Below, in pieces: positions 2,965 to 49,500 of a stretch of 64,000 nt of DNA; position 1 is the first letter of the stretch, and every line of letters starts with the position of its first letter. The DNA lies in NCBI GenBank assembly GCA_041675165.1, contig JBAYUI010000001.1, forward strand, positions 6,901-70,900, read 5' to 3'. Under the pieces are notes generated by a model, which was not told the DNA's origin, did no database searches, and saw only the letters and a list, made by a program, of their open reading frames with translations. The position numbers were made by a program, and so were the translations under genes. This stretch comes from Parcubacteria group bacterium. GTDB lineage: Bacteria; Patescibacteriota; Minisyncoccia; Moranbacterales; UBA2206.

Positions 2965-3768
2965 TCATTTTTCCCAAGTGGTGGGCAGATCATATTTGCC
3001 TTCCAGGTTTTTCCAAGTCAGCTCCACTATTTCTTTTATAGCTAGGGCAAACTTGGGAGATTCGATGATAAGCGTTTCGACGCTTTCAATGAGGCAAATG
3101 CGCACAAATTGATTGTCGCAAGATTCGATGGAAACTTTGGCGCTATAGATTTCCGGCGGCAAAAATTTGGCTTGGATGGATTTCAGTCCATCACCAAAGA
3201 ATTTTTCAAAGGGTTTCAATTGAGGTGTGTCGACAGTTATGCCGCGAACACGCGTGTTGTGAGCTTCTTTGTATTCATTCCATTCCAGGAATACTTGCGT
3301 GACAGCCGGAGAAGCATCTTCGTTGGAGGTGAAAAATCCAACAATTTCTTTTCCATATAAATCTTTCTGTCTATATTTGTAGGCTTGGCGCAAGCCTTCA
3401 ACGCCTTCGAAATACAGGATACTGGGTTTGTTAGTAGTGTTCTTTTGATAGGAGCGTAACTCGGGCAAGATTTTTTTAGCGGCCGAAAGGCGATCTTCTT
3501 GCTCCTCAATGAACGTATCTGGAGTTTTGGCGATGTATAGCTTCTTTTCTTCTCCTGGGATATGCACGATAAGACCTTTTTTGACCAGTTCCTCGGCGAT
3601 AATATAGGCAGTAGGGCGCTTGATGCCGGATTTGATGGCAATTTGATAGGGAGTGGCAGATCCAAGCTGAAGCAGGGCCAAATAGACCAGAACTTCTTTT
3701 TCGGACAAGCCTAAATTTTTTAGCGGTTCAATGAGATGGTTCATAGGAAGAGGAAAGTGGTTATACAT
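2965..3768 (-). CDS. TrmB-family transcriptional regulator (paralog 1)
   Basis: N-terminal wHTH region LGLSEKEVLVYLALLQLGSATPYQIAIKSGIKRPTAYIIAEELVKKGLI is typical of TrmB-like regulators, with a C-terminal effector-type domain. It is divergent from the small-ORF cassette locus. Confidence 0.65.
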   Translation of the reverse strand: MYNHFPLPMNHLIEPLKNLGLSEKEVLVYLALLQLGSATPYQIAIKSGIKRPTAYIIAEELVKKGLIVHIPGEEKKLYIAKTPDTFIEEQEDRLSAAKKILPELRSYQKNTTNKPSILYFEGVEGLRQAYKYRQKDLYGKEIVGFFTSNEDASPAVTQVFLEWNEYKEAHNTRVRGITVDTPQLKPFEKFFGDGLKSIQAKFLPPEIYSAKVSIESCDNQFVRICLIESVETLIIESPKFALAIKEIVELTWKNLEGKYDLPTTWEK

Positions 3769-3794
3769 GGATTATAGCAAGAATAGATTGAATA

Positions 3795-3809
3795 GTCAAT
3801 AAAGTTGAC
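3795..3809. promoter_or_regulatory. Palindrome GTCAAtaaagTTGAC in the TrmB1/cassette divergent intergenic region; candidate operator
   Basis: A perfect 5-bp inverted repeat read from the sequence. Related (A)TTGTCAA...TTGACAAT palindromes lie upstream of the other two TrmB paralogs. Confidence 0.3.
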
Positions 3810-3901
3810 GAATAAATATGTATATTAGTAGATTGTGGCTAATAAAAAGCAATAAATGGATAAAATCAGGGTATGTTTAGATAATAAAGTAGACATAGAT
3901 A

Positions 3902-3930
3902 TTGACTAATTTCCCAAAACGCGCTATACT
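3902..3930 (+). promoter_or_regulatory. Sigma70-like promoter P1 (TTGACT-N17-gcgcTATACT) driving the small-ORF cassette array
   Basis: -35 TTGACT at 3902-3907, 17-nt spacer, -10 TATACT at 3925-3930. Architecture and GCGCTATACT box are near-identical to the promoter at 48569-48597. The downstream leader motif GATGAGTTACGAAAAAAAGA is also shared with locus 2. Confidence 0.55.
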
Positions 3931-4038
3931 GTGTAGTCAAGATGAGTTACGAAAAAAAGACAGTCATCCTGACAACAGTTCATTACAATTTATCACCCCG
4001 CACAATCAAGGGTTCAAAATTTGGAAAGGATAAGTGTT

Positions 4039-4209
4039 ATGAAAAGCGTAACAAAAGTAGATTGGAAAGATAAAAGATTCCACATAGGATGGAGAAGTGA
4101 GGCGGAGTGGTATGCGTATTGTATAAAAATGGGGAAATTGACGATTGATGATGAGAATCTTGATCGCTACCCCCTGCGTCGTGCACTACTATCTGTCAAA
4201 GGACGCTGA
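4039..4209 (+). CDS. Cassette A: small hypothetical protein (56 aa)
   Basis: ATG at 4039 preceded by the conserved GGAAAGGA RBS-bearing header. The track start at 4021 is a TTG inside the header. No recognisable domain. Confidence 0.4.
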   Translation: MKSVTKVDWKDKRFHIGWRSEAEWYAYCIKMGKLTIDDENLDRYPLRRALLSVKGR

Positions 4210-4291
4210 AAAAGCGACGGCGCTGAGTCATCAGCGTAGCAACAGAAGTGAGGCCAATGAGGGTATGCTCATCGCATCACAAATGACAATC

Positions 4292-4424
4292 GGGCAAGGA
4301 GATTTAAAAAATCTTTCTTGCCCTCTCAATTAAGATTTTGAAATAAATTCGAAGTCTTATAGGGAAAAGTTCTTTGTAAAATATTGCCCAAGCAAGGGCT
4401 CAAAATTTGGAAAGGAGAAAGGCC
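4292..4424 (+). repeat. Inter-cassette unit 1: hairpin GGGCAAGGAGAT-N7-ATCTTTCTTGCCC + TCTCAATTAAG + conserved spacer + CAAGGGCTCAAAATTTGGAAAGGAGA header
   Basis: A ~133-bp unit with homologous copies at 5223-5347 and 5903-6004. A degenerate copy lies at 4997-5080, and header-only copies at 3990-4038 and 4861-4882. Confidence 0.7.
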
Positions 4425-4853
4425 ATGAGAAATATTTTTATATTACTCAAAGATTTCGGTGGAATGCTTAGAGTTGTCAACGCATCTTATAAATCATTCA
4501 ACATCAAGCAGAACAATGGTTCGTTGATAGAAATGGAATGTTTAGAAAGCGATTGGGCAATAGAATGGCACGAGCAGTATAAAAGTCGTGAGCCTGGATA
4601 TAATTTTGGTACTGGATCTGAGCTAAGGGCAAAATTATTTCTTTTGCGAAGCATGAATAGCGAAATTCCCCATAATGGTGGATACAGTATGACAAAACTG
4701 TACACCGGCCCCTCAGTGAAGATTGTTATGAATGAAGTGGAATATAGACTGGAGAAAAATTCCTTTTCATTCTGTTATCTGGGTGGGGATACGTATTATG
4801 GGGGAACAAGCATTTTCCCTCTGGCTGAATATTTGAAAAAATATCTCAAATAA
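4425..4853 (+). CDS. Cassette B: hypothetical protein (142 aa)
   Basis: ATG at 4425 directly after the conserved header/RBS (GGAAAGGAGAAAGGCC). No recognisable domain. The track start at 4407 is a TTG inside the header. Confidence 0.45.
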   Translation: MRNIFILLKDFGGMLRVVNASYKSFNIKQNNGSLIEMECLESDWAIEWHEQYKSREPGYNFGTGSELRAKLFLLRSMNSEIPHNGGYSMTKLYTGPSVKIVMNEVEYRLEKNSFSFCYLGGDTYYGGTSIFPLAEYLKKYLK

Positions 4854-4882
4854 AACAGTCCCAAGGGTTACAGGGTAAGTTG

Positions 4883-4996
4883 ATGAAAATAACCTGTGAC
4901 TTTGTGGAAACATTTCACGACGGTAAGGTCAACGCCGATAATGACTATCATCCGACTGATTCACGACACGGATCAAGAAATTGGGAGAAAGACTAG
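4883..4996 (+). CDS. Cassette C: candidate 37-aa peptide behind a truncated header copy
   Basis: The truncated header CAAGGGTTACAGGGTAAGTTG is followed by ATG at 4883, ORF MKITCDFVETFHDGKVNADNDYHPTDSRHGSRNWEKD, stop at 4994-4996. Below the ORF-track size cutoff. Confidence 0.25.
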   Translation: MKITCDFVETFHDGKVNADNDYHPTDSRHGSRNWEKD

Positions 4997-5222
4997 AAAA
5001 CTAATCTTTCTCCTCTCAATTGGAATTTTAAAATTAATTTTTTGAAGTTTCATAGAGACGAAATTCTTTAAGATAGATTTTATTAGCGGGTATTTTTGTT
5101 CCACCAGGGGGGATAGATAGGGCTTTGGCTATAATCCAATGACAATTTCTGTTTTGTGGAACAGAAATACCTATTCTTGGTCCCCTGTCTATGATGACAA
5201 AGGAGGTGATAAATAAGTCTGC

Positions 5223-5347
5223 GGGCAAGAAGATCAACAAATCTTCTTGCCCTCTCAATTAAGGTTTTAAAATTATTCTGAAATCTTATAGGGAAGTGTT
5301 CTTTATAAAATATCGCCCGATCAATGGCTCAAAATTTGGAAAGGAGA
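5223..5347 (+). repeat. Inter-cassette unit 3: perfect hairpin GGGCAAGAAGAT-caacaa-ATCTTCTTGCCC + TCTCAATTAAG + spacer + header
   Basis: 12-bp perfect stem at 5223-5252, then sequence about 85% identical to unit 1 through the RBS. Confidence 0.7.
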
Positions 5348-5896
5348 ATGGCTATGCGTGACATGGAAACTCTTATTGCGTTGTCTAATGGCGGCTTGAA
5401 TTTCAAAATCGGAATGGTTGAATACCCCAAAGAAGTTGACCCATCTTTTCCGAAGATGTTTCTCTATCGAGAAACATCCTATGGCAGAGAAGGTGTGCTA
5501 TGCTGGGTTGCTACACCAGAAAATACTTGTTGCAAAGATAATGTGCTCAATATCGAGAGTCTTTCTTTTGTAAAAGTATGTGGAGAAGCATTAAAATGTA
5601 TTGGTACTTCTTTGATTGAAACAGAGAAGTTAGAGGCGAGGCTTCTTCAGGAAATTCCTTTTGGATCTGCTGCTGGGAGAGATAAGCAGGATCATGATGA
5701 ATATATGGAAATGATCCACGATGCTCTAAATGGATTCTGCCAGCAGGTTGAAAAAGTTTTCTGGGAGAATGTTTATAAGCTCTCTTGCGAGATGAATATT
5801 CAAGAATTGAATATGGTTAGGTGTCATCGTTGGATAAAGATTAAAATTGATAAAGAAATGCAGAATGGAAATCCTGCATTTCAGTGGTATTTGTAA
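5348..5896 (+). CDS. Cassette E: hypothetical Cys-containing protein (about 182 aa)
   Basis: ATG at 5348/5354 after GGAAAGGAGA. The track start at 5324 lies inside the conserved header, where a G>T change creates an ATG. No recognisable domain. Confidence 0.45.
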   Translation: MAMRDMETLIALSNGGLNFKIGMVEYPKEVDPSFPKMFLYRETSYGREGVLCWVATPENTCCKDNVLNIESLSFVKVCGEALKCIGTSLIETEKLEARLLQEIPFGSAAGRDKQDHDEYMEMIHDALNGFCQQVEKVFWENVYKLSCEMNIQELNMVRCHRWIKIKIDKEMQNGNPAFQWYL

Positions 5897-5902
5897 GTGT
5901 AT

Positions 5903-6004
5903 GGGCAAGGAGATGATTCAATCTTCTTGCCCCTTCAATCAAGATTGCAAAAATGTTTTGTGATTTTGTAGAAGAAAAATTGTTCTTTAAATCCAAAAGG
6001 AGAG
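5903..6004 (+). repeat. Inter-cassette unit 4: hairpin GGGCAAGGAGAT-gattca-ATCTTCTTGCCCC + TTCAATCAAG + shortened spacer
   Basis: Homologous to units 1 and 3 but lacks the CAAGGGCTCAAAATTTGG block. It ends in the RBS AAAAGGAGAGATGG. Confidence 0.6.
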
Positions 6005-6286
6005 ATGGATATGAAAAAGATAATCGGTGGATTCGTGTCTGTTATTATTGTGCCTATGTTCCTTGTTTTTTTATGCCAAATTTTTGTGTATGATATGGCG
6101 CTGGAAGCTGTCTGGCCATTTCAAAACAAGGAGTTGGGCGAGTATGTACAAACGCTCCTAGTCAGTAAGGGCATTCCAGTAATATATTTGTATATTGCTG
6201 GAAGAATAGCGGGCGTAGGTTTGCTCGCCATGCTGACAGCCAGCGTCCTTTCTTTCAGGAAAGGAAAAGAGTGCGGAAAAGCTTAA
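6005..6286 (+). CDS. Cassette F: small two-TM membrane protein (93 aa)
   Basis: Two hydrophobic helices, VSVIIVPMFLVFLCQIFV and IAGRIAGVGLLAMLTASVL. It is the last ORF of the array before a strong terminator. Confidence 0.45.
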   Translation: MDMKKIIGGFVSVIIVPMFLVFLCQIFVYDMALEAVWPFQNKELGEYVQTLLVSKGIPVIYLYIAGRIAGVGLLAMLTASVLSFRKGKECGKA

Positions 6287-6304
6287 AAACTTTTCTTGTT
6301 CAAC

Positions 6305-6342
6305 CCCGGCCGTGGAATATTTTTCCTCGGCCGGTTTTTGTT
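6305..6342 (+). terminator. Rho-independent terminator closing the cassette array
   Basis: CCGGCCG-tggaatatttttcct-CGGCCGG followed by TTTTTGTT. Confidence 0.6.
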
Positions 6343-6549
6343 ATCTTTACGAACTACCCGCCTCGACTCGCGGAGACGATCCGCTCGTCGACGCGAGGCG
6401 GGCGGATTAGTACGAATGTACGAATAAAAAAGTACGCGTCATTATTTGTGTAATATATAAATACAATGTGGGATTAATATTGACCGGTGAATATTCACCC
6501 CCTGATAGTGACCTCAGGGTTAAGTGGATGCGCGAATAAAACTTTTGCG

Positions 6550-6578
6550 TTGACTAGTGCTTCTTTTTTAGATAGTAT
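6550..6578 (+). promoter_or_regulatory. Candidate promoter TTGACT-N17-TAGTAT upstream of the DUF4325-like gene
   Basis: Read directly from the sequence. The ATG at 6593 follows with a short, AT-rich leader. Confidence 0.3.
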
Positions 6579-6592
6579 AAAGACTATAAAAT

Positions 6593-6874
6593 ATGCGTAT
6601 TGAAATTAAAAAATTTGGTGAAATTTTAATCTCTCGCCCGGCTGGTAGGGAGGCATACTTAGCAATGTCTGCTTATATTATCAAAGAATTTAACGAAGAT
6701 GAGGTTATTGAAATAGATTTTTCCGGAGTCAAAGTGTTAACTCCTGCCTGGGCGGATGAAGTGATAACGCCACTCGCGCAAAAATTCAAAAGTGTGAAAT
6801 TGCTCAATACGGAAAATTCCTCGGTGCAAGCTACGCTGAAAACTCTGCGGGAATATTCTGATTTGAAGATATAG
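6593..6874 (+). CDS. STAS-like small protein (DUF4325-like)
   Basis: 93 aa. The pattern MRIEIKKFGEILISRPAGREAY...EIDFSGVKVLTPAWADEV matches what I recall of the DUF4325 STAS-like family. Confidence 0.45.
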   Translation: MRIEIKKFGEILISRPAGREAYLAMSAYIIKEFNEDEVIEIDFSGVKVLTPAWADEVITPLAQKFKSVKLLNTENSSVQATLKTLREYSDLKI

Positions 6875-6882
6875 CAGACCTT

Positions 6883-6920
6883 AAAAACAGCGTAGCCTAG
6901 GCGCTATGCTGTTTTTGTTT
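6883..6920 (+). terminator. Rho-independent terminator
   Basis: Imperfect 15-bp stem AAAAACAGCGTAGCC/GGCGCTATGCTGTTTTT followed by a T-run. Confidence 0.5.
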
Positions 6921-6932
6921 AGCTGATATTCT

Positions 6933-6975
6933 TTCCTAAAGCCGAGCTTTAGGAAGATTAGCTTTAGGAAGATTA
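6933..6975. repeat. REP-like hairpin TTCCTAAAGC-cga-GCTTTAGGAA with a tandemly duplicated 3' arm (GCTTTAGGAAGATTA x2); also present at 35598-35622
   Basis: Exact 10-bp arms at both sites. Here it sits between convergent genes (the DUF4325-like gene on + and yebC on -). Confidence 0.5.
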
Positions 6976-7689
6976 TAAATTATCGAAAATCTCATCCACA
7001 TCATCCAGTTCGTCCAAAACTTCTAAGAGTTTTTCGTAAGCTTCTTTGGTGGCAGGATCGATTTCGGCGATGGTTTTGGGCAGATAGGACAGATTAGCCT
7101 CGGCGATTTTTTGGCCGGAGGCTTTCAACTTGTCTTGCACCTTTTGCAGCTCGGTCGGCTCGGTGAAGATAATGAATGCGCCTTCTTCGGTTTTCATATC
7201 TTTCGCACCAGCGTCGATGGCGACCATTTCTAGTTCTTCAAGATTGCTGTTTTCGTCAGTTTCGATGATGATGGCGCCGACTGGGTCAAAGTTCCACATG
7301 GATGAGCCGGCCTCGCCGAATTTGCCGCCGTTTTTGGTGAGAACGGTTTTCACTTCGCCGAGCGTGCGGTTTTTCTTGTCGGTGGTGGCTTTCACTAGCA
7401 TCATGACATTGCCTGGGCCTTTGGCTTCATAGATAACTTCTTCCATCTTGTCGCCTTTCAGTTCTCCGCTTCCGCGTTTCACCGCGCGATCAATGTTGGC
7501 CTTGGGCATGTTATAGGAAAGTGCTTTGTCGATGGCCGCGCGCAACTGAAAATTGGTGTCCGGATTGCCGCCGCCAGCTTGCGCCGCAATGACGATCGGT
7601 TTGGCGAGAACAGTGAAAATCTTGGCGCGCTTGGCGTCATTCACGCCCTTTCTTTGCTTGATTCCAGCCCAATGTGAGTGTCCTGACAT
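6973..7689 (-). CDS. yebC: YebC/PmpR-family DNA-binding regulatory protein
   Basis: MSGHSHWAGIKQRKG... is the canonical YebC N-terminus. The track ORF extends to 7767, but the internal Met at 7689 matches the family start. Confidence 0.85.
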   Translation of the reverse strand: MSGHSHWAGIKQRKGVNDAKRAKIFTVLAKPIVIAAQAGGGNPDTNFQLRAAIDKALSYNMPKANIDRAVKRGSGELKGDKMEEVIYEAKGPGNVMMLVKATTDKKNRTLGEVKTVLTKNGGKFGEAGSSMWNFDPVGAIIIETDENSNLEELEMVAIDAGAKDMKTEEGAFIIFTEPTELQKVQDKLKASGQKIAEANLSYLPKTIAEIDPATKEAYEKLLEVLDELDDVDEIFDNL

Positions 7690-35666: not shown

Positions 35667-36017
35667 CTATCTAGGATATAACTCCTTGATTCTATCAGCT
35701 CCTTTATAGATTATATAAGGGATAGCTCCTCTATCGATTTCAAGCTCTTTGCTTAAAATATTATAAATAGCTATTTTATGCTCTTTTGTTTTTCCATTGG
35801 AGTAAAAATGGAAAGTTATACCTTCGTAAGTAATACTTATGAAAGTTATCCACTGGGGAAATTTCATGGATATGTTATTAATGCAGTGGTAGCAGTAGCA
35901 GATGATGTCTCCATGATCGGGAAAATTTTTGCTATAAGTACCCTTGGGTTCTCTGATTAACGATTTGCACTCAAAGCAGGTTTGGCCAATAATTTTTTTT
36001 GGTGAAATTTTTTCCAT
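35667..36017 (-). CDS. Small Cys-rich hypothetical protein (CxxC...CxCxxC)
   Basis: From the internal Met: MEKISPKKIIGQTCFECKSL...GDIICYCYHCINN... Possibly a zinc-binding module. The track ORF extends 19 codons upstream. Confidence 0.35.
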   Translation of the reverse strand: MEKISPKKIIGQTCFECKSLIREPKGTYSKNFPDHGDIICYCYHCINNISMKFPQWITFISITYEGITFHFYSNGKTKEHKIAIYNILSKELEIDRGAIPYIIYKGADRIKELYPR

Positions 36018-36089
36018 AGTTATTCTCCCTTGCGTTGTTGGTTGAGAGCTAGTTGTGAATAGGATAGTATTCAATATTTATTGCATCAT

Positions 36090-36179
36090 TCAATTAATAT
36101 TGCCTTCTGGAATTATTTTGTAAAATCCAGGCAAGAATTCTTCCAAAGCAAAATCTTTGATAATTTCAGGTACTTTCAT
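36090..36179 (-). CDS. Candidate 29-aa peptide divergent from TrmB paralog 3
   Basis: MKVPEIIKDFALEEFLPGFYKIIPEGNIN, preceded by GAGAGG 7 nt upstream of the ATG. The longer track ORF (36090..36350) looks non-coding upstream of this Met. Confidence 0.2.
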   Translation of the reverse strand: MKVPEIIKDFALEEFLPGFYKIIPEGNIN

Positions 36180-36267
36180 TTTAGCCTCTCTTGTTAGTTT
36201 TAGTGTGTGCTCGCAGCCTCTTTTTTTAAAAAACAAGTAATAAGATAGTGTATGACATAGGAGAAAT

Positions 36268-36300
36268 ATTGTCAATAATTGTTCAACAAATGTTGACAAT
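36268..36300. promoter_or_regulatory. Inverted repeat ATTGTCAA-N17-TTGACAAT (with nested TTGTTcaACAA) upstream of TrmB paralog 3; candidate operator
   Basis: 8-bp perfect arms read from the sequence, 13 nt before the TrmB3 start. Confidence 0.35.
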
Positions 36301-36312
36301 ATATTAACAACA

Positions 36313-37113
36313 GTGTACGATAGGCATATGTTAGCCAGTAACACTCTCAAAAAATTGGGTCTAAATGAGAAAGAAACGCGAGTCTATCTGGCGCTACTTC
36401 GGCATGGACAAGCTAAACCGGCGGAACTGGCGAAACTCACTAAACTTAATCGGGCAACGCTTTATCATACTGCCAAAAGCTTGGTTTCATCCGGAATTAT
36501 TGCTGAAGACTTGAGTGGCAAGGCTTTGCAATATGTGATTTTGCCGATTGATAATATGAAAAATATTCTAGAATCAGACAAGAGAGAATTAAAAGAAAAA
36601 GAGAAGCTGGTCAAGCAGGCAGTGGGAGAATTGCAGATGATCAGTTCAGAAAAATCATATCCGGTGCCCAAAATTAGATTCATAGAAGAAAATGATTTGG
36701 AAAAATTCTTGTTCGATAATTTAGTGAAATGGCAAAAAGAGGTTATTGCATCTGATGGACACTGGTGGGGCTTTCAGGATCATACTTTTGTGGAAAATTA
36801 TCCTGCTTGGATTGAGAAGAGTTGGAAAACTAAAGAAAGCCAACGTGGAAACTATTCGCCGCAAATATTTACTAATGATTCAAAGACCGAGCGGAAATTG
36901 AAAGGAAAATATCAGCCGAAGCGGCAGGTGAAATTTTTAGCGGATACTAATTTCACGGCTACAACCTGGGTTTGTGGGGATTATCTAGTAATGATTTATA
37001 CTCGCCAGGTCCCATATTATATTATTGAAATTCACGATGAGATGATGGCGCTCAATATGCGCGAGATTTTTAGGAGGTTGTGGAGAAATCCGGTTGGACA
37101 AAAAGTTGATTAG
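36313..37113 (+). CDS. TrmB-family transcriptional regulator (paralog 3)
   Basis: LGLNEKETRVYLALLRHGQAKPAELAKLTKLNRATLYHTAKSLVSSGII wHTH, similar to paralogs 1 and 2. Confidence 0.6.
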   Translation: MYDRHMLASNTLKKLGLNEKETRVYLALLRHGQAKPAELAKLTKLNRATLYHTAKSLVSSGIIAEDLSGKALQYVILPIDNMKNILESDKRELKEKEKLVKQAVGELQMISSEKSYPVPKIRFIEENDLEKFLFDNLVKWQKEVIASDGHWWGFQDHTFVENYPAWIEKSWKTKESQRGNYSPQIFTNDSKTERKLKGKYQPKRQVKFLADTNFTATTWVCGDYLVMIYTRQVPYYIIEIHDEMMALNMREIFRRLWRNPVGQKVD

Positions 37114-47534: not shown

Positions 47535-47559
47535 ACGACCGTGGTGGTCGTGTTTTTTT
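47535..47559. terminator. Bidirectional terminator hairpin ACGACC-gtggt-GGTCGT + T7
   Basis: Lies between convergent genes (the hypothetical membrane gene on + and TrmB2 on -). Confidence 0.5.
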
Positions 47560-48346
47560 ATCCCCACGGGTTTTCGGCTTTCTTGGCAAAAGTGAAAATG
47601 GTTTCGAAGAGGGTGTCGATGAGGCGAAAGAGGGCGGGGTGTCGGATGGTGATGGTGAGCGCCACATCAGGGAAGAGAAAAGAAATTTTGTTATTATACA
47701 ATACGACCAGACCCTTGATCGGCAAATTGGCTTCTGGGAGGGTGCGGATGTTCCACATCCGGTCACTGAGAATGCGATAGTTCTCAGGTGTGATGGATTT
47801 TTTGATATCAAACAAGATTTCTTCAGTGAAAATGGCCTTGGTCAGGATTTTCCTTTCCGCAACTTGGGTGAAGAAGAAATCCCAATATTTATTATCTAGC
47901 AGTTTCAATTCCGCTTCGGCCCCTTTTTTATCTTCAATAACTTTGAAAGTTGAGCCGACCGGCATGTGGATCACTTCGTCATATATTTTTTTGAAAGCGG
48001 CGTTGGATTCCATGATTTCGATCTGGGGCATTTCGCTTTCGGCATCATGCATTGATTCCAATTGGGGGAGTAGGGTTTTGAAATCCCCGACGCTTTGTTG
48101 CAATCTTTCGGCCAATTCAGCGGGGGCAATCGGGGAGATGAGTAATTTCTTACCTTTTTTCGTTTCCGTCAGGACTTTTTTCTTTAGGAGGCTTTTAATG
48201 TGAAAATAGGCCACGGTGCGCCCAATTCCGGCCTTTTCAGCGATTTCCGCAATGCCGGACTTTCCCAGCTTTAGGCACGCGGTATAAATCTCCGATTCCG
48301 CCTCAGAAAAAGCGAAGTTTTTCAGGATGTCGTTGATTTTTTCCAT
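47558..48346 (-). CDS. TrmB-family transcriptional regulator (paralog 2)
   Basis: From the internal Met: MEKINDILKNFAFSEAESEIYTACLKLGKSGIAEIAEKAGIGRTVAYFHIKSLLKKKVL wHTH. Divergent from cassette locus 2. Confidence 0.6.
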   Translation of the reverse strand: MEKINDILKNFAFSEAESEIYTACLKLGKSGIAEIAEKAGIGRTVAYFHIKSLLKKKVLTETKKGKKLLISPIAPAELAERLQQSVGDFKTLLPQLESMHDAESEMPQIEIMESNAAFKKIYDEVIHMPVGSTFKVIEDKKGAEAELKLLDNKYWDFFFTQVAERKILTKAIFTEEILFDIKKSITPENYRILSDRMWNIRTLPEANLPIKGLVVLYNNKISFLFPDVALTITIRHPALFRLIDTLFETIFTFAKKAENPWG

Positions 48347-48568
48347 AAGGTTATATGTTTTGTCATTCCTGCGCAGGCAGGAATCTAGTCGCAAATTATT
48401 AAGTTTCTACATTGGATCCCCGCATGCGCAAGGATGACAGGGAAGATATTAACTCCATCTTAGCACCTTTTCCGTATATTGTCAACAAAATTATTCATCA
48501 AAATATAATAAAATAATGCTTAAAATAAAGGATAATAATATAATATACCAATGATTTGACTATAATTA

Positions 48569-48597
48569 TTGACGTTTGCTTGAAATTGCGCTATACT
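48569..48597 (+). promoter_or_regulatory. Sigma70-like promoter P2 (TTGACG-N17-gcgcTATACT), paralogous to P1
   Basis: -35 at 48569-48574, -10 at 48592-48597. The downstream leader GATGAGAAACGAAAAAAACA matches the P1 leader. Confidence 0.55.
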
Positions 48598-48702
48598 ACG
48601 TTGTTACGATGAGAAACGAAAAAAACATCGCAACACAGTACATCGAAATCACCTCACAAAATTCGCTCAATATTGAGCAAAATATTTCACAAGGAGAAAG
48701 TT

Positions 48703-48927
48703 ATGATAGTTTTTATACTAACCTCGAACAAGCCATGCAAGAGTATTGAGGGAGTTTATCTTAAAGAGAGCACTGCAATTGCTGAGGATAATAGAGTATG
48801 TCCAGGATGGCAGGAGCGGGAAAGGGCAGAAATGAAAAAAAGGGAAGGCAAAAATATTTCCGAAATAGGATATTATATGTATTCACCTGAAATAAGTATC
48901 TATGAAAGAGAGGTGATTGAAAAATAG
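48703..48927 (+). CDS. Cassette G: small hypothetical protein (74 aa)
   Basis: ATG after RBS CAAGGAGAAAG. The stop codon overlaps the GGGCAACGAGAG...CGTTGCCTCTCTCATTGAG boundary hairpin, which is homologous to the locus 1 hairpins. Confidence 0.4.
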   Translation: MIVFILTSNKPCKSIEGVYLKESTAIAEDNRVCPGWQERERAEMKKREGKNISEIGYYMYSPEISIYEREVIEK

Positions 48928-49060
48928 GGCAACGAGAGAACAACAATTCATCGTTGCCTCTCTCATTGAGATCATTTGTGAAATGGTTTCATAGGGGAAA
49001 AGTACGTTGAAAATTGAATAGCCTGATAATGGGCGAAATATTATATCAAGGAGAAAGATC

Positions 49061-49456
49061 ATGGAGATAGTATTCGATATGGAGTTTATCAAGAGTGAAG
49101 CTGACAAGATGAAAAAAAGAAGCCTAGCTGTTGACAAACAAATCCTAAAAAGATCGAAAGCAAAAATCAGGCCATCTGTAATTAAATCTTTAGAAACGCA
49201 GGGTTTTGATGAGAAAATGCATATAGTTTCTGACCGCATATTGGAGATTTTTGCAGAAGATTGCAAGCACAGAGATAGCTGTATCGGTTGTAATGAAAAA
49301 GCAAGTGAAGTGGTAGCCGTCATGCTGAGAGATTTTATTCCTGATGATGGTAACCCTCCTAGGTTTTCGCGCTGTTGCAGTTTATCAGAGCTTTATAATG
49401 TGATAGTAGGTATGAATGTTGATAGATTCATATGGATTCCTTTTCGTAACTGGTGA
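49061..49456 (+). CDS. Cassette H: hypothetical Cys-containing protein (131 aa)
   Basis: Preceded by a spacer homologous to the locus 1 inter-cassette spacer (TCATAGGGGAAAAGT..TTGAAAATTG vs CTTATAGGGAAAAGTTCTTTGTAAAATATTG) and RBS CAAGGAGAAAG. Confidence 0.45.
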   Translation: MEIVFDMEFIKSEADKMKKRSLAVDKQILKRSKAKIRPSVIKSLETQGFDEKMHIVSDRILEIFAEDCKHRDSCIGCNEKASEVVAVMLRDFIPDDGNPPRFSRCCSLSELYNVIVGMNVDRFIWIPFRNW

Positions 49457-49463
49457 GTACTTA

Positions 49464-49500
49464 CCCCAGATAACAATTCGTTATCTGGGGTTTTTGTTTT
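49464..49500 (+). terminator. Rho-independent terminator closing cassette locus 2
   Basis: CCCCAGATAAC-aattc-GTTATCTGGGG + TTTTTGTTTT. Confidence 0.65.

Follow-up and report, generated by a model that had tools for sequence, protein, structure and literature searches.

How does a series of small genes that bear no resemblance to one another come to be separated by copies of one and the same conserved non-coding unit? This question is raised by positions 3,995–6,010 of a 64-kb stretch of DNA (the window) from an uncultured Parcubacteria/Moranbacteria genome, where four full spacer units, beginning at 4292, 4984, 5223, and 5903, and a further copy of the units' header alone in the 5′ leader are interspersed with the small open reading frames (ORFs A–E) of an array (locus 1). 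Coordinates without a contig name are those of the window, and related contigs are designated by L numbers. According to the analyses described below, the unit is very likely a structured sense RNA specific to these arrays. It consists of two adjacent hairpins and constitutes a new candidate RNA family with unusually clean covariation, and the locus is a hypervariable island whose small genes are mostly orphans.

The repeats reported by the first-pass annotation of this DNA were confirmed. The motif CTTGCCCTCTCAATTAAG is present in three copies (4317, 5246, 5926) against 0.05 expected by chance, and the 26-nucleotide (nt) header also occurs three times (4007, 4393, 5322) with none expected. 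Alignment of 19 distinct unit copies from the window and the related contigs, followed by folding of the alignment with RNAalifold, yielded two hairpins, HP1 and a long HP2, with compensatory changes in 14 of the 21 base pairs. HP1 is a GC-rich hairpin of 9–13 bp located 0–10 nt past most upstream stop codons and about 80 nt past ORF A. HP2 starts one nt after HP1, is AU-rich, and comprises 13–17 bp with an internal loop. The previous description of a 12-bp hairpin with a linker has to be revised accordingly: the "linker" TCTCAATTAAGRTTTT and the "spacer" ending in CTTATAGGGA are the two strands of HP2, so that the blocks TCTCAATTAAG and CTTATAGGGA of that description are mutually paired. In the consensus, YYTC-AAT-TYAAGATTKY on the linker side pairs with RRWYTTR-TA-GARR on the spacer side, and the two sequence flavors of HP2 are compensatory (TCTC..GAGA vs. 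CTTC..GAAG; TTAAG..CTTA vs. TCAAG..TTTG). In the 19 units 95.7% of the cells are paired, compared to 45–55% when the partners are slid by 1–3 columns, and none of 500 shuffles reached any of the measures. A first nhmmer profile made from three locus 1 units was too narrow and missed the unit of locus 2 (see below); it was replaced by a diverse profile and by a covariance model (R1), which recovers 32 copies from 14 loci, among them 13 units outside the model-building set. These 32 units have 96.2% of the cells paired and compensatory changes in 18 of 21 pairs, values that lean towards structure because the alignment was fitted to the model. The units of the window have folding z-scores of −2.7 to −5.1.

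Two smaller elements of the earlier description also change their meaning. The supposedly degenerate copy at 4984–5079 (+ strand) is a full unit (unit 2; R1 71.1 bits) whose HP1 stem has covaried (GGAGAAAGAYTAG / CTAATCTTTCTCC; GGAGAAAGACTAG / CTAATCTTTCTCC), and this HP1 variant recurs in L002, L010, L012, and L021. The supposed unit fragment at 4861–4882 belongs to a different conserved block, the one with micro-ORF C, of which it forms the beginning. The truncated copies that had been taken as evidence of turnover were thus misread.

About 70 of 659 cells are G·U pairs, most of them in HP2. The fold is specific to the sense strand because these pairs would be A·C mismatches on the other strand, and G·U pairs on the coding strand therefore point to an RNA and not to a double-stranded operator; an operator reading of HP1 and HP2 was rejected on account of their covarying stems and G·U pairs. 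No match to Rfam 15 was found at E ≤ 1 in 3000–7500, a region that includes the four units and the leader. ARAGORN detected no tRNA or tRNA-like gene in 3000–7000, for which reason tRNA-like punctuation between the cistrons was rejected as well.

HP2 is followed by GTTCTTT, which is unpaired in the consensus structure, an optional mini-hairpin GCCC..GGGC, and AAAGGAGA. Unit 1 (4292–4424, +; R1 87.4 bits over 4292–4386; minimum free energy (MFE) −46 kcal/mol, z = −4.5) is a long form with HP1, HP2, GTTCTTT, the mini-hairpin, and a Shine–Dalgarno sequence. Unit 3 (5223–5353, +; 87.7 bits over 5223–5315; z = −3.3) is also long, and unit 4 (5903–6010, +; 82 bits; z = −5.1) is a short form without the header. 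In the long forms, the 3′ part GTTCTTT..GCCC..GGGC..AAATTTGGAAAGGAGA has its homolog in the 3′, transcribed portion of the leader and not in the promoter; in the leader this translation-initiation module with the header CAAGGGTTCAAAATTTGGAAAGGATA lies at 3995–4038 (+) directly before ORF A (nhmmer E = 2.7e-5 against the unit profile). In short-form units only about 40 nt separate HP2 from the ATG. The statement that every ORF is preceded by a unit is correct in part: ORF A has the leader with merely the 3′ header, micro-ORF C has no unit, and ORF E has a short unit lacking the header.

Some sequences around HP1 deserve mention. An IS200/IS605-like "TCAA" cleavage site after HP1 was considered and rejected, as this position is occupied by TCTCTATT or TCTCCATT in many units and is part of helix P2a with its internal loop. 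Upstream of HP1, a conserved "KGGDK" peptide or a Shine–Dalgarno-like AAGGAGGTGA occurs inconsistently in several units. A near-perfect Shine–Dalgarno-like string, AAGGAGG(T/C)GA(T/C)AA, is found 5–20 nt upstream of HP1 in several units (window 5198–5222; L013 ~2365–2402; L014 ~340–368; L018 ~6148–6175, array strand; L002 ~1745–1768), either within the terminal part of the upstream ORF or in apparently non-coding sequence.

Is the unit restricted to such arrays, or is it a repeat spread throughout the genome? In the window, R1 matches only at 4292, 4984, 5223, 5903, and 48927, i.e., in two arrays linked to genes of the TrmB family. The search covered 170 kb, consisting of the window and related contigs and not of complete genomes. 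Within it all 32 confident matches lie in arrays of small ORFs and on the array strand, with none in about 130 kb of other sequence, so the genome-wide repeat that would have undermined the first-pass annotation did not appear. A selfish miniature repeat such as a repetitive extragenic palindromic (REP) element, a miniature inverted-repeat transposable element (MITE), or a Correia-like element would share the palindromic, repeated character and the size of about 100 bp. REP elements, bacterial interspersed mosaic elements, and Correia elements are likewise intergenic palindromes co-transcribed with genes, and can stabilize mRNA or terminate weakly. They are, however, dispersed genome-wide in both orientations, whereas the unit has one locus type and one orientation, always between a stop and a start codon, and is fused to a translation-initiation module. 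It furthermore lacks terminal inverted repeats spanning the unit and target-site duplications, and is retained in genomes with a TrmB identity of no more than 54–74%. We consider a MITE or REP origin unlikely, and a selfish repeat spreading between genes highly improbable as an account of the unit.

The architecture around the units is equally constant. The gene for a TrmB-family winged-helix regulator (2965–3768, −; Pfam PF01978, E = 1.3e-15) is located divergently to the array, and orthologs with 54–90% identity adjoin equivalent arrays in L010–L012, L015, and L018–L022. A motif scan of metagenome contigs of the Joint Genome Institute (JGI) retrieved nine loci, eight of which are true relatives. 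Because the scan pattern fixes GGGCAA..TTGCCC, part of the conservation of the HP1 ends in the JGI loci is a product of the search itself; the HP1 interior, all of HP2, and the loci retrieved via proteins are free of this bias. Every contig with enough upstream sequence has the divergent TrmB-family gene, a ATTATTGAC-N17-TATACT promoter, a covarying leader hairpin, and an array of small ORFs separated by units. L017, which was retrieved by a remote homolog of protein D and not by a DNA motif, has four units between six small ORFs. Moreover, five TrmB orthologs chosen on the sole criterion of identity with the window protein (74, 71, 69, 66, and 54%) all face divergent arrays of small ORFs without Pfam matches; confident units were detected in four of these loci, and in the fifth HP1 serves as a terminator. 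In the source records the lineage is designated Parcubacteria group or Candidatus Moraniibacteriota. Searches for the leader motif TATACTN{9,13}GATGAGNNACGAAAAA in GTDB species genomes gave five matches, which is chance level, none of them in bacteria of the candidate phyla radiation (CPR), and the unit motif had no match in viral contigs. No description of this locus type was found in literature searches on Parcubacteria, CPR, and Patescibacteria.

The genes between the units form a strong counterpoint to this uniformity. ORFs A–E show no pairwise similarity (best blastp E ~0.6 in a five-sequence database), in agreement with the first-pass annotation; as the ORFs are not paralogs, the units are not paralogous 5′ untranslated regions of one duplicated gene family. 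Comparison of A–E with Pfam, PHROGs, PADLOC, and PDB sequences gave nothing significant. ORF A (4039–4209, +; 56 amino acids, aa) is an orphan absent from L002 and L010. ORF B (4425–4853, +; 142 aa) is a strict orphan whose sole match among 5.8 billion proteins is itself. ORF E (6011–6286, +; 91 aa) has no family match and is also absent from L002 and L010; its hydrophobic segments suggest a small membrane peptide. ORF D (5354–5896, +; 180 aa) belongs to a very narrow family with only two other members in 1.84 billion representative proteins. Judged by its substitution pattern, D is a real gene, with a ratio of non-synonymous to synonymous substitution rates (dN/dS) of 0.21–0.30 against L002 and L010, and a dS of 0.78 against L002. 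An AlphaFold2 model of D from a two-sequence alignment was unusable (mean predicted local distance difference test score 44). Remote homology of A and B to a 123-aa protein of L002 was considered and dismissed, as blastp E-values of 0.03–0.05 in a tiny database are too weak. In the other loci, too, Pfam matches are almost absent from the cargo, and the few cargo families common to several loci are D, micro-ORF C, and a membrane peptide of 45–47 aa.

The most conserved piece of the arrays is micro-ORF C (4883–4996, +; 37 aa, motif DGKVNADNDYH), which is contained in the "C block" at 4861–4996. It is 95% identical to its counterpart in L002, where D has 79% identity, and it occurs in L010, L017, and L021 as well. 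Within the motif, L021 differs at three sites, all of them synonymous third-position changes. The block is located at 1282–1397 in L002, 4152–4275 (array strand) in L010, 693–801 in L017, and upstream of the unit at 5531–5626 (minus strand) in L021. A small covarying hairpin (GTTACAGG/CCTGTGAC) has the start of C in its loop, and the stop codon of C is inside HP1 of unit 2.

Comparison of related strains supports the earlier proposal of a conserved scaffold with variable cargo: the window, L002, L010, L017, L019, and other loci retain the units and differ in their ORFs. The window and L010 are colinear over 4860–5988 with 92.6% identity, and homology breaks directly after the GTTCTTT of unit 4, leaving HP1 and HP2 with the upstream gene. 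L010 has a single 120-aa ORF in place of A, unit 1, and B. L002 has a 123-aa ORF in place of A/B, and an 82-aa gene in place of the near-empty cassette at 5080–5222 (+), which contains only a 25-codon ORF (5140–5217) and is 98% identical to L010. In addition, the L002 unit before D is a chimera of a unit 4-type 5′ half and a unit 3-type 3′ half. The strain breakpoints fall at several places (in the translation module of the leader, where the C block begins, behind GTTCTTT, and within HP2) and not at one fixed position.

Such arrays recall integrons, especially sedentary chromosomal ones with uniform attC sites such as the Vibrio VCRs. These too are co-oriented arrays of small, strain-variable ORFs, mostly of unknown function, which are separated by conserved imperfect palindromes of about 100 bp with structure retained more than sequence, are served by a single upstream promoter, and have a GC content below that of their surroundings (here 37–39% in the array vs. 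44–49% in the flanking genes). The variation of cassettes between strains with conserved inter-cassette sites is also seen here, in the window, L002, L010, L017, and L019. Nevertheless, the array is not an integron, and the likeness to attC sites suggested by the first-pass annotation goes no further than this. Integrons possess an intI gene, an attI site, R/L boxes, and the GTTRRRY core, none of which is present. No recombinase gene is found next to locus 1 or locus 2, nor was one called within 7 kb in L018–L022; the adjacent conserved gene encodes a TrmB-type regulator instead. Neither RYYYAAC nor GTTRRRY occurs in the unit sequences at the feet of the hairpins, the nearest string being GTTCTTT. 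Finally, the units have a sense-strand fold rich in G·U pairs and carry the ribosome-binding site of the next gene. The rAID-1 clusters of Bacteroidales, which their authors call reminiscent of integrons (bioRxiv 10.1101/471110), are next to integrons the systems that the locus most resembles in its workings. They are similar in that small diverged genes are arrayed with repetitive sequences between them, in their skewed GC content, and in having one conserved 5′ gene. Their defining features, however, are a XerD-like tyrosine recombinase and immunity-gene homologs, whereas here the 5′ gene is the TrmB-family regulator and the cargo has no PADLOC or Pfam match; no RNA structure was reported for the rAID-1 repeats, in contrast to the structured units described here.

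A related possibility is that the units act as folded single-stranded DNA, as attC sites or IS200/IS605 ends do, and that a recombinase encoded elsewhere captures and excises the cassettes. Conserved structure with variable stem sequences, as in attC sites, would fit this scenario, as would the turnover of cargo, the empty or near-empty cassettes (5080–5222; L012 4097–4287), the chimeric units, and the low GC content of the array. Yet the surroundings of about 12 arrays, over about 5 kb or more in each case, contain neither an integrase nor a transposase gene, and the RYYYAAC/GTTRRRY core is missing. Extrahelical bases, which are typical of attC, are absent from the near-perfect stems, the strain breakpoints are spread over several places, some of them outside the units, and the unit is always fused to a Shine–Dalgarno sequence between a stop and a start codon. 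As G·U-rich helices also suit RNA better than DNA, we judge a single-stranded DNA site to be decidedly unlikely.

If the units are RNA, the next question is how the array is transcribed. A promoter scan identified one good plus-strand promoter in the array, TTGACT-17-TATACT at 3902–3930, which matches 10 of 12 consensus positions; the pattern ATTATTGAC-N17-TATACT is common to L002, L010–L012, L018, L019, L021, and locus 2 of the window. The transcript would begin with a leader stem-loop, GTCAAGATG...CATCCTGAC (3936–3973, +), which is present in the MFE fold. Its stem varies by locus with pairing kept, partly via G·U (GTCATGAT/ATCGTGAC, GTTACGATG/CATCGCAAC, GTTAAG/CTTAAC). Between the divergent promoters, the palindrome TAGTCAA-N5-TTGAC (TAGTCAATAAAGTTGAC; 3793–3809) overlaps the −35 element of the regulator's own promoter, which the scan placed at 3799–3771 (−). 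This palindrome, TAGTCAA-N5-TTGAC(A), is kept in the window, L002, L011, and L018–L022, and the TrmB protein probably binds it as its operator. The strong terminator announced by the first-pass annotation as the end of the array is present at 6305–6342 (+), with a GC-rich stem CCCGGCCG..CGGCCGG followed by TTTTTGTT.

The ends of other arrays connect termination with the unit itself. In all three arrays that close with HP1 (L002, L018, L019), the hairpin is directly followed by a U-tract; these are canonical intrinsic terminators, and the terminal HP1 of L019 is nearly identical to HP1 of unit 4. None of the approximately 30 internal units has a U-tract, and the 5′ strand of HP2 (YYUC) occupies its place. 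One might therefore suppose that each unit combines a terminator (HP1) with a promoter in its 3′ half (around TATAAAAT), so that each small gene is its own transcription unit like the "morons" of phages. Besides the terminator function of HP1 at array ends, this would be consistent with the TAAAAT/TATAAA strings in long-form units and with L011 2689–2860 (array strand), where a complete TTGACT-N17-TATACT promoter and a hairpin resembling that of the leader come after the unit (L011:2689). However, the lack of U-tracts after internal HP1 contrasts with the other terminators of the genome, which carry them, and the scan of units 1, 3, and 4 found no promoter. The units lack the TTGAC-N17-TATACT pattern seen in every array promoter, there is no TTGAC-like −35 element 16–18 nt upstream of TAAAAT, and the TAAAAT segment is homologous to a transcribed part of the leader and not to a promoter. 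Short-form units (5903, L011:2244, L013:2403) do not possess this segment at all, and their approximately 40 nt between HP2 and ATG are too little for a promoter plus leader. The per-unit promoters considered in the first-pass annotation are thus not borne out, and the terminator-plus-promoter model appears unlikely to us.

We favor instead a mechanism in which one regulated promoter produces a polycistronic RNA punctuated by terminator-derived hairpins, and cassettes are swapped via their conserved flanks; taken as a whole, its chances of being right or wrong seem about equal. A sigma-70-type promoter would transcribe the array under the control of the divergent TrmB-family regulator, presumably acting through the TAGTCAA-N5-TTGAC palindrome. 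HP1 would be the array's own terminator hairpin, which has its U-tract at array ends; inside the arrays, replacement of the U-tract by the HP2 5′ strand would let RNA polymerase read through. HP1–HP2 might then form a 3′-end module of the upstream cistron, serving as a barrier to 3′ exonucleases, as an RNase III-like processing signal of the kind found between phage T7 genes, or as both, and the module after HP2 might be a standard translation-initiation region for the next cistron. As judged from the breakpoints, identical flanks on every cassette would allow homologous recombination to swap, delete, or add cassettes, and uniform flanks together with such recombination would explain the different cargo and the chimeric units in related strains.

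The closest precedents for this punctuation are the intercistronic RNase III signals of phage T7 and the 3′ stabilizer hairpins of bacterial operons, which are also repeated hairpins with internal loops between the cistrons of a long transcript. Cleavage of a single strand by RNase III, in the T7 signals within the internal loop, can leave a 3′ hairpin that stabilizes the upstream mRNA (PMC3867540). The arrays differ in having two adjacent hairpins, one of them derived from the operon's terminator, in helices shorter than two helical turns, and in their hypervariable cargo.

Several observations weigh against the proposed mechanism. Firstly, we infer read-through, processing, and stabilization from sequence. 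Secondly, HP2 with its 13–17 bp interrupted by a loop is short compared to the ideal E. coli RNase III substrate of 22 bp (PMC3867540). Thirdly, the bases of the HP2 internal loop are conserved and covary (AAU/UA in 21 units, UAU/UC in six, CAU/UC in one), which hints at a non-canonical pair or a protein contact and suggests a specific protein partner. Fourthly, the internal promoter of L011 implies that some arrays are not single transcripts but divisible into more than one transcription unit. Furthermore, GUUCUUU pairs weakly with the Shine–Dalgarno sequence in one MFE fold; both partners are invariant, which makes covariation uninformative, but such pairing could mean that the unit regulates translation rather than marks 3′ ends. 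Lastly, homologous recombination covers the shuffling of existing cassettes and not the acquisition of standard flanks by new orphan ORFs.

The third and fifth of these points bear on the alternative that the unit is a cis-regulatory RNA, either a protein-binding operator or a ligand sensor, through which one common signal would control how the downstream gene is translated or how stable it is; alternative pairing of GUUCUUU with the purine-rich HP2 3′ strand or with the Shine–Dalgarno sequence would be one route. GUUCUUU is nearly invariant, complementary to the Shine–Dalgarno AAAGGA, and paired in the MFE fold of unit 1, and the same module recurs in the promoter-proximal leader, all of which, like the covarying internal loop, would be expected of a regulator. 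On the other hand, known riboswitches govern coherent regulons, whereas the cargo consists of unrelated orphans. In addition, HP1 and HP2 remain with the upstream gene at the window/L010 breakpoint, HP1 stands alone as a terminator at array ends, and the proposed switch helix is beyond the reach of covariation. Cis-regulation is in our view rather unlikely, if worth keeping in mind.

A more far-reaching version of the favored mechanism, which we advance only tentatively and think somewhat improbable, is that the arrays constitute an integrase-free, lineage-specific cassette platform. The terminator-derived two-hairpin RNA and the standard ribosome-binding module would here act as a universal "socket", and any sequence between two sockets would be expressed, insulated, and exchangeable. 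If true, such a platform would be a nursery and marketplace for orphan genes in bacteria with reduced genomes and a functional parallel to integrons, albeit one based on RNA punctuation and homologous recombination. Should the units allow cassettes to be exchanged with no recombinase involved, the task that integrons fulfill would have been solved a second time independently, possibly giving another route to cassette arrays. Irrespective of the mechanism, the units represent a candidate RNA family that is absent from Rfam and stems from a phylum-level group whose RNA biology has hardly been studied by experiment. The combination of TrmB regulator, leader, and punctuated orphan array recurs in the relatives examined and marks where these small genomes concentrate strain-specific genes. 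It would provide a tangible setting in which to investigate the origin and testing of orphan genes, and the covariance model can flag such islands in metagenome bins.

The window contains a second, more diverged locus of the same architecture (locus 2, 47558–49500). Its TrmB paralog (47558–48394, −; Pfam PF01978, E = 5.5e-9) was also identified by tblastn, and its promoter TTGACG-17-TATACT (48569–48597) is followed by a leader with the same GATGAGAAACGAAAAAA stem-loop, promoter and leader together spanning 48569–48702 (+). Two orphan ORFs without Pfam matches (48703–48927 and 49061–49456, +) are split by a diverged unit (48927–49018; R1 59.6 bits), and an intrinsic terminator (CCCCAGATAAC..GTTATCTGGGG, then TTTTTG; 49464–49499, +) closes the array. 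The neighbors of locus 2 are genes for a bestrophin-like protein and TrmB on one side and for FemAB and a Mur ligase on the other. A third TrmB-family paralog (36313–37113, +) faces small divergent ORFs on the minus strand (35667–36074 and ~36090–36180); neither the leader motif nor a unit is present in this locus (35667–37113).

Locus 1 is flanked by genes for an ATP-grasp protein, a seven-transmembrane protein, RuvC, and TrmB on one side and for DUF4325, YebC, an LTD/PKD protein, a bPH protein, and RuvB on the other, and the island lies between ruvC and yebC in the window, L010, L016, and L018–L020. The DUF4325 (STAS-like) protein (6593–6874, 93 aa; Pfam E = 1e-8) has its own promoter-like site and is encoded between the array terminator and yebC; its gene may be part of the same variable island. 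Between ORF A and unit 1, a conserved block of about 70 nt (4217–4286, +) has 82% nucleotide identity to L017 284–352 and to L019, where its counterpart is situated just upstream of the unit at 5190–5282 (array strand); the block may belong to the tail of a small ORF that overlaps it (4148–4333) or represent a further RNA element. Gene pairs of ~195–205 and 245–255 aa are found beside arrays in L012 (1281–2671), L016 (4346–5736), and L014 (676–2033; all array-strand coordinates), and by eye they resemble toxin–antitoxin pairs of the AbiEi/AbiEii type. Lastly, L020 (~5080–5260) and L022 (~4620–4800, both array strand) have in common a GC-rich non-coding block at the distal end of the array (..CTGCGG..GGTGGTCA.CTCGAGGACCTGCACA..), which may be another structured RNA.

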